Shown: piece by piece, positions 1-51,953 of the stretch
How positions within the stretch are numbered: the first letter of the stretch is position 1
Layout of the letters: every line of letters starts with the position of its first letter
Assembly (NCBI GenBank): GCA_964518835.1
Contig: CAZFKU010000004.1
Span: 1-52,056 of the forward strand
Direction of reading: 5' to 3'
DNA length: 52,056 nt
From: an uncultured bacterium
GTDB lineage: Bacteria; Fidelibacterota; Marinisomatia; Marinisomatales; AB-629-J13
The notes under the pieces: generated by a model
The model's input: the letters and a program-made list of their open reading frames with translations, nothing else
Told to the model about the DNA's origin: nothing
The model's database searches: none
Made by a program: the position numbers and the translations under genes

Positions 1-54
1 ACCGACGACCTCCTGAATGCCATTCAGGCGCTCTCCCAACTGAGCTACGGCCCC
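1..54 (-). tRNA. tRNA-Ala(GGC), 3' end cut off by the window edge
   Basis: Reverse complement reads GGGGCCGTAGCTCAGTTGGGAGAGCG-CCTGA-ATGGCAT-TCAGG-AGGTCGTCGGT. D arm present, anticodon GGC, with the A32-U38 pair typical of tRNA-Ala(GGC). Confidence 0.95.
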
Positions 55-118
55 AAATTTAATATTTAACTGAATCCCTCAATAATTCAGGTAGTTAGAA
101 ATTTAAGTTTAAAAGTTA

Positions 119-589
119 TTAGTGTTTTCTCTTCTTAATCAACCGAAATTTTCTGGCAAATACTTTTGATCGAACGATCCAGGCAGTATCATATCCCAGG
201 TTGCTTAACCTTATTTTCATATTTTCAGCTTCATTTCGGGTGGTGAAATTCCCTACTCTTACCTTGTAAACCGGTGCATCAAATGCGATGTATAATTCCT
301 CATCTAATTTTTCTTCAAGGACGGTTTTTATACTGTCAGCAGACTTAGAAAAACGGGTAGCAAAAACCTGAACCCTGAATCCGTCCAATTCCTGAAGAGA
401 TGTGTCAAGGGCGGCAGTGTCAGTAATAGCAGTTTTGTTTTTCACGAATGAATGAATAACCTGAGGCCATTTAGGAGGAATATCATTCAGCCGGGATGGG
501 TCAAATTCTTCCTTAGTCTGGCAGAAAATTGTAGAAACAATCAATATCAACAGACTCCATTTAAAAATTATGTCATCGGATGAGTTCAT
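119..589 (-). CDS. SPOR-domain peptidoglycan-binding protein, probably exported or a lipoprotein
   Basis: Hydrophobic N-terminus ending IFC; C-terminal GFRVQVFA...YKVRVGNF...A...L..LGY..AWIV SPOR pattern. Confidence 0.8.
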   Translation of the reverse strand: MNSSDDIIFKWSLLILIVSTIFCQTKEEFDPSRLNDIPPKWPQVIHSFVKNKTAITDTAALDTSLQELDGFRVQVFATRFSKSADSIKTVLEEKLDEELYIAFDAPVYKVRVGNFTTRNEAENMKIRLSNLGYDTAWIVRSKVFARKFRLIKKRKH

Positions 590-26945: not shown

Positions 26946-27663
26946 GTGATTCTCCATTTCTTGTCGGGGAATTATATTTTTCCCATAAATCTTTCCTTCT
27001 TGCTTCAGTGCGTTCTTCTCTTTTCTTATTCCGCCAGGAATCAATTTGTTTATGATTTCCGTTTAACAATACTTCCGGAACCTGCTCACCGTCAATCTCC
27101 CTGGGTCTTGTATAATAAGGTGCATCCAGAAGTCCATTCATAAAGGAATCTGAGAGCGCTGATTCGTATGAGTTTAGTACACCGGGAATCATCCGGATGA
27201 TACTGTCCAACATAACCATCGAAGACAATTCCCCGCCTGAAATGACATAATCTCCAATGGAAAACTCATGTGTTACATATTTATCAATCACCCGTTCATC
27301 AATCCCTTTATAATGACCACAAAGAAAAATTGTATTTCCCGAACAACTGAATTCCTGAGCCGCCTTTTGTGACCAGATCTCACCTTGAGGTGTGGGATAG
27401 ATAATTTTGACATTATCATATTCCTGCCACGAAGAAATGGTATGATCGATTGCTTTAAAAAATGGTTCTGCCATCATGACCATTCCTCCTCCTCCTCCAT
27501 ATGGTTCATCATCAACCTGACGGTAATTCCCTTCGGTGAAGTTTCGCAGGTTAACAACTTTTATATCTGCTATTCCGTTTTCCACCGATTTTCTGATGAT
27601 TGATTCCTGTATCACCTTATTTACAAGGTCCGGAACCGGTGTTATGATTGCAAAACGTTTCAA
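26938..27663 (-). CDS. trmD: tRNA (guanine-N1)-methyltransferase
   Basis: [49 protein letters not shown]. Confidence 0.97.
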
Positions 27664-28160
27664 TCCAGTAGTCCTTCCATGGCAGATATAACCAGAGTTT
27701 CACTTTCCCAATCAAGGTGTTGTACGATCTCATGAATGACAGGAACTAGAAATTCCCTTTTTTCTTTCTGAATCACATAAACATCATTTGAAGGCAGCCA
27801 GAGAATTTCTTTTAAAATTCCTACCCATTTGTTTTCTGTGGTCACAACTTCAAATCCGATTAATTCTTCGGAAATCCAATTGATCTGATCATGCTCTGAT
27901 ACACCGGCAAACACAAATTGTCCGATGATTGATTGAGCTGATTTTTTTGTATTCACACCGGAAAAACGATATCTTGGGTGCTTTCCTGATGGAATTATAT
28001 TTTCTAATTCAGTTGCTGTATTTGCAGATTCAGAAAACCCTAAATACAGCGGTTTTTCATCGATATACTCCTCGAAATATCGAGAAAGAGGTTTACACCG
28101 CACTTCTCCATTGAGACCCGACACCTTGGTCACCTTTCCAATTGCAAACAGTTTTTTCAT
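27660..28160 (-). CDS. rimM: Ribosome maturation factor RimM
   Basis: IGKV....GL.GEV, LIG.EV, NDVYV, LVP.I, EGLLD; operon position. Confidence 0.92.
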   Translation of the reverse strand: MKKLFAIGKVTKVSGLNGEVRCKPLSRYFEEYIDEKPLYLGFSESANTATELENIIPSGKHPRYRFSGVNTKKSAQSIIGQFVFAGVSEHDQINWISEELIGFEVVTTENKWVGILKEILWLPSNDVYVIQKEKREFLVPVIHEIVQHLDWESETLVISAMEGLLD

Positions 28161-28165
28161 TAATT

Positions 28166-28402
28166 TTATCTGTCAATTACATCCAGTCTTGCACGTTTGC
28201 CGCCTTCCTTGGCATTTATGGCAAATATGAGAGATCTAATTGCGGAAATGTTCTTTCCTTTTTTACCTATGACTTTGCCGTAGTCGCCCTCACCAACCAT
28301 CAGTTCATAAATAATTCGTTTTTCAGATTCTACTTCATTCACTTCAACTTCGTCCGGTTTATCTACTAACTGTTTTACGACCATTTCAATAAAATCCTTC
28401 AT
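28166..28402 (-). CDS. khpA: KH-domain RNA-binding protein KhpA
   Basis: LVDKPDEV, D.GKVIGKKG (GxxG), AIR; AAGGAG RBS; lies between rpsP and rimM. Confidence 0.93.
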   Translation of the reverse strand: MKDFIEMVVKQLVDKPDEVEVNEVESEKRIIYELMVGEGDYGKVIGKKGKNISAIRSLIFAINAKEGGKRARLDVIDR

Positions 28403-28423
28403 AACGTGTGTCTCCTTTTGGTT

Positions 28424-29542
28424 TTATTCCTTTTTTCGCTTTGAATTTCCTGAAGATTTTAACTCCTTTGCGGTATCATCTTTATCATCAATTGATTCAG
28501 CATTTTCTTCACTTTGGCTGTCCTCAGTTTTGGATGAGTCATTTTCCTCTGGACTATCATCATCCGTATCTTCAATAACATCATCTGTCACCTCTGCAGA
28601 ACCCTCTTTTTCAGAATCTCCTCCATCAGTTTCCTCACTTGAATCTTCATCATTCGAGGCACTCTCTTCCTCGGAATCATCACTCTCTATATTTTCGTCT
28701 TCATCTTGAGATTCACCTGAATCGGTTTCACTTTCATCTGTTTTCTCTTCATCTTCAGAATCTTCTGATGTTTCTTCAGCATTTTCTAATTCCTCTGTGT
28801 CGGTATCTACTTCCGCTGCCTCCTCCTCTACTTCCGTCTTATCTGAGTCCTCCTCATCTGAATCACTATCATCTATGGATTCAACATTTTCTTTTGATTC
28901 TTCTTCCGATTCCTCCTCTGATTCTTCTACAGTTTCGTCCTCATCAGAATCTTCTTCCATCATTCCATCATCCGTATCTGAGGAATCTTCAGATTCAGCT
29001 TCCACTTCTTCCTTGCTTTCCTCATCTTCAAATTCGGTCAATTCTTCAGTGATCTCTTCCGTCTTTTCTTCACTTTCCTCTTCTTGCAAATCGGTTTCCC
29101 CAGAGTCTGATTCTATGGTAACTTTTACTTCTTCATCTACTTCTTTCTCTTTTTCCGCTTCCTTCTTCTCCGCTTCTGCTTTTTCCAGCGATTTTTCCGT
29201 CCGTTTTTTCAAAGTCAATTCCCTGTCTAACCTCCATTTTTGCATATTTTTTTCTATTTCATCATCGCCTAATCCCAATTTCATTAGGTGCCATCGATGG
29301 GATAATCCTGTTTTTGTCATCATGTTCTTCACTACATCAGATGGTTGTGCTCCTTTAGATAGCCAATGTAAAATACGGTCTTCTTTCATGGTAAAATTCT
29401 TACCATTTTTTAAAATAGGATCATACCACCCCACTTCTTCAATGGCGGCACCGTCACGTCTTTTTCTTGAATCAATGACAATGATGCGGTAAAAAGGTCT
29501 GTTCCTTCGTCCTAATCGTTTTAATCGTATTCGAGTTGCCAA
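28424..29542 (-). CDS. rpsP: 30S ribosomal protein S16 with very long acidic C-terminal extension
   Basis: IRL.R.GR..RPFYRI...DSR.RRDG..IE..G.YDP, WL..GAQPSD.V; TTG start behind AAGGAG; open frame to 372 aa. Confidence 0.95.
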   Translation of the reverse strand: MATRIRLKRLGRRNRPFYRIIVIDSRKRRDGAAIEEVGWYDPILKNGKNFTMKEDRILHWLSKGAQPSDVVKNMMTKTGLSHRWHLMKLGLGDDEIEKNMQKWRLDRELTLKKRTEKSLEKAEAEKKEAEKEKEVDEEVKVTIESDSGETDLQEEESEEKTEEITEELTEFEDEESKEEVEAESEDSSDTDDGMMEEDSDEDETVEESEEESEEESKENVESIDDSDSDEEDSDKTEVEEEAAEVDTDTEELENAEETSEDSEDEEKTDESETDSGESQDEDENIESDDSEEESASNDEDSSEETDGGDSEKEGSAEVTDDVIEDTDDDSPEENDSSKTEDSQSEENAESIDDKDDTAKELKSSGNSKRKKE

Positions 29543-29552
29543 AATTGTCTCC

Positions 29553-30890
29553 TTAATGAACTGTCATAAAATGTGATCCGGATTTCCTCATCTGCGGAAA
29601 TGATTTTTTGCTCATCTGTTTCATCATTTTTTTTATTTGGAAAAATTCTTTTAATAATTTGTTTACTTCCTGTACGGATCTTCCGGAACCATTTGCAATC
29701 CGTTTTCTTCTGCTGCCGTTTATAATTTTTGGCTGGTTTCTCTCCTGAACAGTCATGGATTGAATGATTGCTTCCGTCCATACCAGTTGTTTATCATTCA
29801 TATTAATTTTTTTCATCATTTTTCTATTTACCCCCGGGAGCATACCAACAATTTGTTTCAGTGAACCCATTTTTTTAATTTGTCTAATCTGGGATATAAA
29901 ATCATTCAAATTAAACTCTTTTCCTGAAAATATCTTTTGAAATGCTTTCTCATCTTTATTTTCAATGGATTCCTGCGCTTTCTCAACCAGAGACACTACA
30001 TCTCCAAAACCCAAAATTCTGTCTGCAATCCTCTTGGGGTCAAAAACTTCCAATCCATCTATTTTTTCTGAGACCCCGAGAAATTTAATGGGCACTCCCG
30101 TAACTTCAGTCACCGAAACCGCTGCACCGCCCCGGCTGTCTCCTTCCATTTTTGTGAGGACAGTACCGGTAATTGAAATGGTTTCTGAAAATATCTTAGC
30201 CGAATTAACCGCATCCTGACCCGTCATTCCATCCACTACAAATAAGGTTTCATGTGGATTAATGTCGTCATGAATAGATTGTATTTCTTCCATCATTTCT
30301 CCATCCACATGTAATCGTCCTGCAGTGTCCAAAATTACATAATCAAGTCCGAGAGAATCTGCTTTATCAACTGCTTCCTGACAAATTACCACCGGATCAG
30401 ATTTTCCCTTTGAAAAAACGGGAATATCCACTTGTTGTCCCAAAGTCATCAGTTGATCGATTGCCGCAGGGCGATACACATCCGCTGCTGCCAATAGGCT
30501 TGTAAAACCCTTTTTTTTCAGGTGCATCGCTATTTTTACAGCAGTTGTAGTTTTTCCAGATCCCTGCAATCCCGCCAGTAATATTATTTTCGGTTTTCTA
30601 CGACCCGATACTAATGGTGAAACTTTTCCACCCAATAAAGACACCAATTCGTCATGAATAATTTTGATGAACTGCTCACCGGGTTTAATAGATTTAATTA
30701 CTTTTGTACCTTCGGCACGGGATTTCACCTTTTTAATAAATGATTTTACGATCCCGTAATTCACATCCGCTTCCAAAAGAATGATTCGTATGTCCCGAAC
30801 CGTGGATTGGATGTTAGTCTCCGTAATCTTTCCCAGTCCTCTTAAAGTCCGGAATACAGTGTCAAATTTTTCAGTGATTTTATCAAACAT
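29553..30890 (-). CDS. ffh: Signal recognition particle protein Ffh
   Basis: LLEADVN, GLQGSGKTT, DVYRPAA, DTAGR, M domain with SMT..ER..P.I...SR..RIA.GSG. Confidence 0.98.
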   Translation of the reverse strand: MFDKITEKFDTVFRTLRGLGKITETNIQSTVRDIRIILLEADVNYGIVKSFIKKVKSRAEGTKVIKSIKPGEQFIKIIHDELVSLLGGKVSPLVSGRRKPKIILLAGLQGSGKTTTAVKIAMHLKKKGFTSLLAAADVYRPAAIDQLMTLGQQVDIPVFSKGKSDPVVICQEAVDKADSLGLDYVILDTAGRLHVDGEMMEEIQSIHDDINPHETLFVVDGMTGQDAVNSAKIFSETISITGTVLTKMEGDSRGGAAVSVTEVTGVPIKFLGVSEKIDGLEVFDPKRIADRILGFGDVVSLVEKAQESIENKDEKAFQKIFSGKEFNLNDFISQIRQIKKMGSLKQIVGMLPGVNRKMMKKINMNDKQLVWTEAIIQSMTVQERNQPKIINGSRRKRIANGSGRSVQEVNKLLKEFFQIKKMMKQMSKKSFPQMRKSGSHFMTVH

Positions 30891-51866: not shown

Positions 51867-51953
51867 CGGAGAGGGAGGGATTCGAACCCTCGTTACACGT
51901 TAATGTAAACACGCTTTCCAAGCGTGCGCCTTCAGCCACTCGGCCACCTCTCC
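51867..51953 (-). tRNA. tRNA-Ser(GGA), CCA not encoded
   Basis: GGAGAGG/CCTCTCC acceptor stem, G discriminator, CACGC-TTGGAAA-GCGTG anticodon arm, long variable arm, GGTTCGAATCC. Confidence 0.97.

Follow-up and report, generated by a model that had tools for sequence, protein, structure and literature searches.

A long, acidic and predicted disordered C-terminal tail on ribosomal protein S16 of an uncultured Fidelibacterota bacterium

The rpsP gene and the parts of its product

We analyzed a stretch of 52,056 nucleotides, hereafter the window, which comprises positions 1 to 52,056 of contig CAZFKU010000004.1 in assembly GCA_964518835.1 (1.52 Mb, 96 contigs, 90% complete). It derives from an uncultured bacterium of the phylum Marinisomatota/Fidelibacterota (SAR406), which falls in the FCB (Fibrobacterota-Chlorobiota-Bacteroidota) group under NCBI taxonomy. 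The gene in question is rpsP, encoding ribosomal protein S16 (bS16), and the gene order at the locus is ffh-rpsP-khpA-rimM-trmD-rplS, as read from Pfam matches of the neighbors and from open reading frame (ORF) translations. The original prediction, made from the letters of this DNA, held that this S16 is 372 amino acids long in an unbroken frame and carries a 257-residue, hyperacidic, disordered tail. The ORF list bore out the length and the frame. The gene and the parts of its product, with support from composition and from an AlphaFold2 (AF2) model and its confidence score pLDDT (predicted local distance difference test), are as follows.

28424..29542, minus strand: rpsP (bS16), 372 codons plus stop, TTG start at 29540-29542 (ORF list, Pfam PF00886)
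29303..29542, minus strand: canonical bS16 core, residues 1-80, net charge +11 (composition; AF2 pLDDT 84-97; structural superposition)
29129..29302, minus strand: helical C-terminal extension, residues 81-138 (AF2 helices 80-88 and 93-138; pLDDT from 97 down to 72)
28463..29128, minus strand: predicted disordered polyanionic tract, residues 139-360 (20-residue windows of net charge -7 to -12; AF2 model without secondary structure)
28427..28462, minus strand: Lys-rich C-terminal tip, residues 361-372, LKSSGNSKRKKE, net charge +4 (composition)

Ribosomal proteins are typically basic, and the first 115 residues of this one, core plus extension, carry a net charge of +14. Residues 116-372, which were taken as the tail in the original prediction and which occupy window positions 28427-29197 (the stop codon is at 28424-28426), carry -106, bringing the whole protein to -92. 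A recount of that segment matched the earlier tally exactly: 127 of its 257 residues (49.4%) are Asp or Glu, a single Phe is the only aromatic residue, Cys and His are absent, and the tip is basic. There are also 21 Lys or Arg and 56 Ser or Thr residues, and neither Trp nor Tyr. The fraction of charged residues is 0.58, and the net charge is -0.41 per residue. Within its own genome the S16 tail is the longest acidic tract (265 residues covered, the runner-up reaching 114), and S16 is the sole ORF of at least 200 amino acids with a net charge below -0.2 per residue. The proteome as a whole has 12.6% Asp plus Glu and 9.8% Lys plus Arg, and with a median net charge of only -0.016 per residue an acidic proteome of the halophile type was rejected. 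A core protein of the 30S subunit is thus the most negatively charged long ORF of its genome, in a phylum that is common in the ocean interior and that includes genomes of <1.1 Mb.

Over the 257 tail codons the S16 frame contains no stop, whereas the remaining sense frames contain 13 and 43. Mononucleotide shuffling of the tail never gave a stop-free frame (0/2000 shuffles; mean of 19 stops). The open frame is therefore beyond chance and not a by-product of composition. Tandem repeats in the tail DNA are short and almost absent, which indicates that the tail is old and has nevertheless remained acidic and open.

The identity of the N-terminal part is clear. The product matches Pfam PF00886 (Ribosomal_S16) over residues 9-68 (E 1.8e-25, 89 bits against a cut-off of 27), and a six-frame search of the 1.52-Mb assembly returned it as the sole S16 match (92.6 bits), making the gene single-copy. 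The AF2 model, built on a 32-sequence alignment, has the bS16 fold: it superposes on chain 8buu_p with a Z score of 11.6 and a root mean square deviation (rmsd) of 1.6 Å over 86 of 87 residues, and 59 solved ribosome chains score Z >=8 against it. The match to known structures continues past the core. With phmmer, residues 1-136/137 align to residues 1-140/141 of the 192-aa and 188-aa bS16 chains of Bacteroidota, and with VIA-align the model aligns over 2..138 to Porphyromonas gingivalis 9i5v_c (Z 10.2, 117 residues, rmsd 5.0 Å) and over 2..141 to Cutibacterium acnes 8cwo_P (Z 9.9). A WHL...QKW motif in the extension is kept in 20 members of the phylum. Used alone as a PDB sequence query, extension plus tail gave no relevant match, and the same was true of the extension plus tail of a Latescibacterota S16; the assignment to an extended, FCB-type bS16 therefore rests on the joint alignment of core and extension and on the fold.

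According to two structural reports, the extensions in solved Bacteroidota and Cutibacterium ribosomes reach uS4 and 16S rRNA by crossing the 30S body on its solvent side (PMC12123416, PMC10085706). In P. gingivalis, some 100 additional residues at the C-terminus make contact with uS4 and 16S rRNA (PMC12123416), and in C. acnes a 65-residue extension binds uS4 and touches h17, with no density for the far C-terminus (PMC10085706). These are the shorter extensions that the original prediction had named for Bacteroidetes and Actinobacteria. By homology, we infer that the extension of the protein studied here contacts uS4 and 16S rRNA as well, and the point at which the tail exits would then lie close to the uS4 side of the body. 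From residue 138 to residue 372 the AF2 model has a pLDDT of <50 nearly throughout and no secondary structure. The predicted disorder was thus upheld, while its boundary moved: the helical extension had been placed to end at about residue 115, whereas the modeled helix reaches about residue 138, so that the disordered part comprises about 234 residues and not 257. As an expanded polyelectrolyte, the tail would have an estimated contour length of about 80 to 90 nm and a coil size of several nanometers, with which it could reach over much of the 30S solvent face.

Occurrence and evolution of the tail

An assembly or annotation error was considered as the source of so unusual a frame: a contig joined from unrelated pieces, an overlooked stop or frameshift, or two genes fused into one. 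The scaffold gaps that lie in the tail region of several relatives would fit such an error. The window, on the other hand, does not contain a single N, and the stretch was matched in 20 runs from 12 studies among the matches listed. Three of the sequencing runs with contigs matching the locus (X3, X4, and X6) belong to three studies other than the possible sources, and in each of them a single, near-identical contig covers the whole of rpsP with one to two substitutions. Neither a stop nor a misassembly after about residue 115, which the original prediction had named as fatal to it, was found in these contigs, which span the gene intact. Their only indel preserves the frame.

28815..28817, no strand assigned: natural in-frame 3-nt deletion in another population (the X6 contig, which spans 28100-29712, is without the 3 letters at 28815)

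Part of the gene (28559-29316) is also covered by contigs of a metatranscriptome run (X16), where carry-over of DNA into the library is possible. The identical sequence, letter for letter, is present in the ESM Atlas, and the same architecture recurs in hundreds of genomes. The rpsP gene with its long tail is a genuine gene, and an artifact is to be considered virtually excluded.

Matches to S16 were found in 277 of 301 genomes of the phylum and in 38 of the 41 genomes of the order (the source assembly counted), where the open frames are 144-437 aa long. For the phylum, length statistics cover the 150 matches listed of 278: the median open frame is 223.5 aa, and 145 frames reach 135 aa or more, 19 reach 300 aa or more, and 5 reach 379 aa or more. 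Such open frames are read from stop to stop; some may extend upstream of the true start, and others may be truncated where a contig ends. We therefore worked mainly from 58 extracted phylum loci (L001-L058), 57 of which yielded an S16, the search pattern finding none in L030. Six of these were dropped because they are cut by contig ends (L004, L010, L011, L026, L037, and L052) and five because of X residues derived from N (L012, L013, L016, L025, and L049), leaving 46 complete sequences. In those five relatives the runs of N are scaffold gaps inside the S16 tail. Assemblers evidently break on the low-complexity tail, and S16 lengths are for that reason often wrong in the annotations of metagenome-assembled genomes of this phylum; whatever the tail does, gaps lying exactly there affect annotation and assembly.

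Collecting rpsP from relatives, a check that the original prediction had proposed, allowed tail length and charge to be compared over the 46 complete sequences. All 46 have a tail. The proteins are 155-432 aa long, with 40-317 residues after residue 115, and Asp plus Glu make up 23-49% of the tail (median 36%); 38 of the 46 proteins are net negative. The S16 of the window has the highest acidic fraction of all and the third most negative net charge, behind proteins of -111 and -101. Uninterrupted full-length S16 proteins within its genus are 250-423 aa long. At least six families (f1, f6, f9, f10, f13, and f21) include frames that reach 330 aa or more, with much shorter ones in f9, f10, and f13 as well, and S16 frames of 140-345 aa are still present in the small genomes (0.7-1.1 Mb) of family f13. 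Database entries agree with this picture: the NCBI names of close homologs (250-317 aa) include '30S ribosomal protein S16 [Candidatus Marinimicrobia bacterium]', and S16 clusters in the ESM Atlas whose representatives have 264, 392, and 442 aa carry the label Fidelibacterota.

Outside the phylum, S16 is 81-94 aa long in 68 of 80 contig loci, mostly from Bacillota. Two sister phyla do have long proteins (two of the loci searched for them, L150 and L155, gave no pattern match). In Latescibacterota, S16 is 146-228 aa long with tails of Ala, Glu, Lys, and Pro, one of which (L148) has 113 residues with 49% Asp plus Glu. In Zixibacteria it is 141-293 aa long, and the tails are of mixed Lys and Glu or net basic, as in L141 with 43 acidic and 45 Lys or Arg residues. 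A low-complexity extended tail on S16 is thus, over the sequences compared, a trait of the FCB group. Consistent acidity is found in Fidelibacterota and in part of Latescibacterota, and the gene of the window stands at the extreme.

The tail changes quickly. Within the genus, the nonsynonymous substitution rate (dN) is 0.07-0.18 over residues 1-138 versus 0.44-0.76 in the tail. We used this contrast in dN only, as ratios of dN to the synonymous rate (dN/dS) between species are soft, dS being saturated or undefined and tail alignments arbitrary. One member of the genus (G008; L007, 528-1207) has a 291-nt (97-codon), in-frame tandem duplication in the S16 tail, present in 2.3 copies at 87% identity. 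Its duplicated copies differ by six synonymous and nine nonsynonymous changes, giving a dN/dS of about 0.34 from a small sample of 15 differences. Sequence and length of the tail therefore turn over fast, partly by in-frame tandem duplication, while the acidity stays. No conserved linear motif was found in the tails of the extracted phylum S16 sequences. The basic tip fared no better as a conserved feature. Tips rich in Lys, Asn, and Ser recur in same-genus relatives (L005, L007, and L028), yet across the phylum the tip is less acidic than the remaining tail in only 23 of 46 sequences and has at least two Lys or Arg residues in 29 of 46; a conserved basic C-terminal tip was accordingly rejected, the feature being limited to the genus. 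In a further relative, L029, the tail is internally repeated at the protein level, where Tandem Repeats Finder (TRF) gives short periods only.

These observations can be read as drift that is merely tolerated. The solvent-exposed C-terminus of an FCB-type extension would be permissive, and GA-rich, low-complexity DNA would expand and contract there by slippage and tandem duplication with no function attached. The length ranges in the phylum and within one genus, the coexistence of long and much shorter frames in families f9, f10, and f13, the recent 291-nt duplication, a tail dN at least four times that of the core, the different charge of tails in sister phyla, and the N gaps in five relatives, as repeats would give, all suit such drift. 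Supported by the extreme lability of tail length and by the basic Zixibacteria tails, drift is the main and a close rival to the reading set out below. Drift alone sits poorly with other facts, however. Not one of the 46 complete sequences is without a tail, acidity is everywhere two to four times the proteome level, the window tail is a 257-codon open frame without DNA repeats, and the lone indel seen at the strain level keeps the frame. The trait also survives in streamlined genomes of 0.7-1.1 Mb, and S16 is normally among the most abundant proteins, which we count against a functionless tail. On balance, we consider tolerated drift quite possible, although we would not back it at even odds.

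Possible functions of the tail

The data fit a tail that is selected for its composition and not for its sequence. Always present, acidic, and in frame, yet free in length and sequence, it shows the pattern expected of a disordered region that works by bulk physics. Our favored reading, to which we give a probability of roughly 45%, is that the tail forms a polyanionic brush at the 30S solvent side, selected for its composition and acting by bulk charge. The standard RNA-binding core (residues 1-80) would seat S16 in the 30S subunit, and the helical extension to about residue 138 would lead over the solvent side toward uS4 and 16S rRNA, as in FCB and actinobacterial bS16. The disordered polyanion of about 234 residues would then work as a charged polyelectrolyte brush, through bulk properties and with no specific motif, giving the 30S solvent face extra excluded volume and negative potential. 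It might also keep the very basic free S16 soluble ahead of assembly and lower the nonspecific sticking of RNA and of other ribosomes. Relatives cope with tails of 40-317 residues, so any benefit is probably graded rather than all-or-none.

Several points weigh against this polyanionic brush. Tail length is very labile, with proteins of 250-423 aa in a single genus and tails down to 40 residues elsewhere, which makes a need for some 250 residues unlikely. In Zixibacteria the same scaffold ends in tails that are Lys/Glu-mixed or net basic, so FCB-type ribosomes in general do not require the negative charge. Duplication can enlarge low-complexity tracts in the absence of selection, and the dN/dS values are soft, given unreliable tail alignments and saturated dS. 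In addition, the placement on the uS4 side comes from homology, and the presence of the tail on mature ribosomes is deduced from genes.

A stronger claim would make the tail a functional, charge-selected module: a tethered polyanion with up to about 110 net negative charges, situated by uS4 near the mRNA entry side, which as an RNA mimic or an entropic brush would tune how mRNA is recruited, how the 30S subunit is assembled, or how ribosomes are spaced in cells that are very small and grow slowly. We regard this specific proposal as unlikely. If true, it would be a genome-encoded counterpart of RimK polyglutamylation on the ribosomes of an abundant ocean phylum.

A more local action has been described for other proteins. 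By analogy, the tail might be a tethered nucleic acid mimic or self-chaperone that folds onto the basic surface with which free S16 binds RNA, and maybe onto that of neighbors such as uS4; it could raise binding specificity, be displaced by 16S rRNA, or compete with mRNA near the entry side, in the manner of the acidic C-terminal domain of Hfq. A domain of net +14 (residues 1-115) beside a tail of -106 is suggestive, and there are precedents, as given in excerpts of the reports, both for an acidic disordered tail that autoregulates an RNA-binding protein (PMC5606850) and for acidic residues added to a 30S protein that alter the proteome, as with RimK and S6 (PMC4741518, PMC7343187). Some 106 net negative charges, however, go far beyond what masking a +14 domain would take, and no conserved tail segment marks a defined contact. 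We judge such a mimic or chaperone improbable. The original prediction had likened the tail to nucleoplasmin-type acidic tracts. That likeness is one of composition: Pfam finds Ribosomal_S16 as the only family in the product at E <= 0.01, and no nucleoplasmin core domain. Of the other roles that the original prediction had suggested, those of RNA mimic, chaperone, and spacer may still apply.

The original prediction had also offered the tail as a docking site for KhpA, RimM, or Ffh, encoded alongside, or as a cation buffer. The neighbors in question, and the ribosome binding site that rpsP was correctly said to have for itself, are the following.

29549..29554, minus strand: Shine-Dalgarno sequence AAGGAG, 6 nt ahead of the TTG, overlapping the ffh stop codon (sequence inspection)
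29553..30890, minus strand: ffh (SRP54), upstream neighbor (Pfam SRP54, SRP_SPB, SRP54_N)
28166-28402, minus strand: khpA, downstream neighbor, after a 21-nt gap from rpsP (Pfam KH_KhpA-B)
27660-28160, minus strand: rimM, downstream neighbor (Pfam RimM, PRC_RimM)

That khpA follows normally was likewise confirmed. For a docking platform, or for a buffer of Mg2+ and polyamines, gene adjacency and tail charge speak, and nothing further. Against docking, the identical ffh-rpsP-khpA-rimM-trmD-rplS order is found in a Bacillus locus whose S16 is 90 aa long, the tails share no conserved motif, and the basic tip is genus-limited. As a buffer the tail would be quantitatively weak. A ribosome contains about 4,500 rRNA phosphates, going by Escherichia coli rRNA lengths, and by that figure the roughly 106 charges of the tail add only about 2%. 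We hold both ideas to be very improbable.

Start codons at the locus are a separate matter. At the conserved N-terminal position, rpsP starts with TTG in 47 and with GTG in 10 of 57 Fidelibacterota loci and with ATG in none (0/57), and the Bacillus locus has ATG. A non-ATG start throughout the phylum may point to translational control.

Comparison with known systems and other acidic tails

The nearest known relatives of this S16 are the bS16 proteins of Bacteroidota (P. gingivalis 9i5v/9i5x; Flavobacterium johnsoniae 7jil), which belong to the same FCB group and share the core and the helical extension. Their far C-termini are likewise missing from the structures, with 118 of 192 and 85 of 188 residues modeled. 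They differ in size, having 188-192 aa with about 74-103 unmodeled residues, versus 372 aa with about 234 residues predicted to be disordered and a net charge of -106 in the window; the two sets of tails were compared by length. An invisible tail is thus already present in Bacteroidota bS16, at a third to half of the length of the window tail. Actinobacterial bS16 (C. acnes, Mycobacterium) shares the uS4-binding C-terminal extension, as the alignment to 8cwo_P illustrates. In C. acnes, by contrast, the extension amounts to about 65 extra residues in a 147-aa chain, and no long acidic tract is reported in the excerpted account of that structure; in this unrelated phylum the extension may have an independent origin. 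The S16 proteins of Latescibacterota and Zixibacteria resemble that of the window in having a helical extension followed by a low-complexity tail, and differ in being shorter (141-293 aa across both) and in tails that are rich in Ala, Glu, Lys, and Pro or, respectively, Lys/Glu-mixed or basic.

Two systems of other kinds offer functional parallels. RimK-modified bS6 also presents an acidic, unstructured C-terminal appendage on a protein of the small subunit, and excerpts of two papers report that this polyglutamylation remodels the proteome (PMC4741518, PMC7343187). There, however, a few to some tens of Glu residues are added to another protein after translation and under regulation, whereas the S16 tail is genome-encoded and constitutive. 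Its acidic residues are written in the rpsP frame, which places it outside the RimK type. In Hfq, as in the S16 of the window, a basic RNA-binding protein bears a disordered acidic tail, and the C-terminal domain of Hfq is described as a nucleic acid mimic (PMC5606850). Hfq differs in that a short acidic tip contacts a defined rim, and the S16 tail is an order of magnitude longer.

The tail had been put forward as something new. It proved to be routine within its lineage, being present in every complete sequence of the phylum and also in Latescibacterota, so it is no peculiarity of one genome. As an undescribed trait the claim stood: no paper describing acidic S16 tails was found in the literature searched, which most subscription journals lie outside of. 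The flexible ribosome coat is the subject of a 2026 preprint, which finds, in the portion of its text at hand, that flexible ends missing from structures are enriched in Arg and Lys, and that portion mentions neither bS16 nor acidic fragments (bioRxiv 10.64898/2026.06.18.733196). What is new against that literature, then, is a tail trait that spans the phylum; extended bS16 was known, as were the proteins themselves, databased under the plain name S16.

The consequences depend on the reading. A functional tail would mean that ribosome surface charge is tuned constitutively in nature, and the Bacteroidota bS16 C-termini that are invisible in cryo-electron microscopy maps would then be part of a larger, evolvable appendage. 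If it is neutral, it gives a measure of how much disordered mass a ribosome tolerates at this site. Metaproteomics is affected too, in that tryptic peptides from the tail would be few and very long.

Some further observations concern the window and its genome. At the Rfam gathering score, the window gives only two matches, both to tRNA, at 51867-51953 (minus strand) and 1-54 (minus strand), the latter clipped by the start of the window. A 16S rRNA gene was not found in the assembly with patterns of the universal 16S primer sites.

Other ribosomal proteins of the genome carry acidic tails as well, on contigs beyond the window. In uS2 (contig C43:6317-7405; L139) an acidic C-terminal tail of about 110 residues follows an S2 domain at residues 37-249 of a 362-aa frame. 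As a trait of the phylum this tail was rejected: uS2 frames in 61 genomes are mostly 240-315 aa long, with outliers of 329 and 536, versus 362 here, and the tail is thus sporadic. In bL25 (contig C11:29147-29821; L140) the L25p and TL5_C domains end at residue 187 of 224, and an acidic tail of about 37 residues follows. The next most acidic tracts of the genome lie at C64:5455-6762 and C25:15741-17033, also beyond the window. One of these two products is signal-like at its N-terminus and contains an Asp- and Glu-rich stretch of about 60 residues, and the other resembles a multipass membrane protein with an acidic C-terminal tail.

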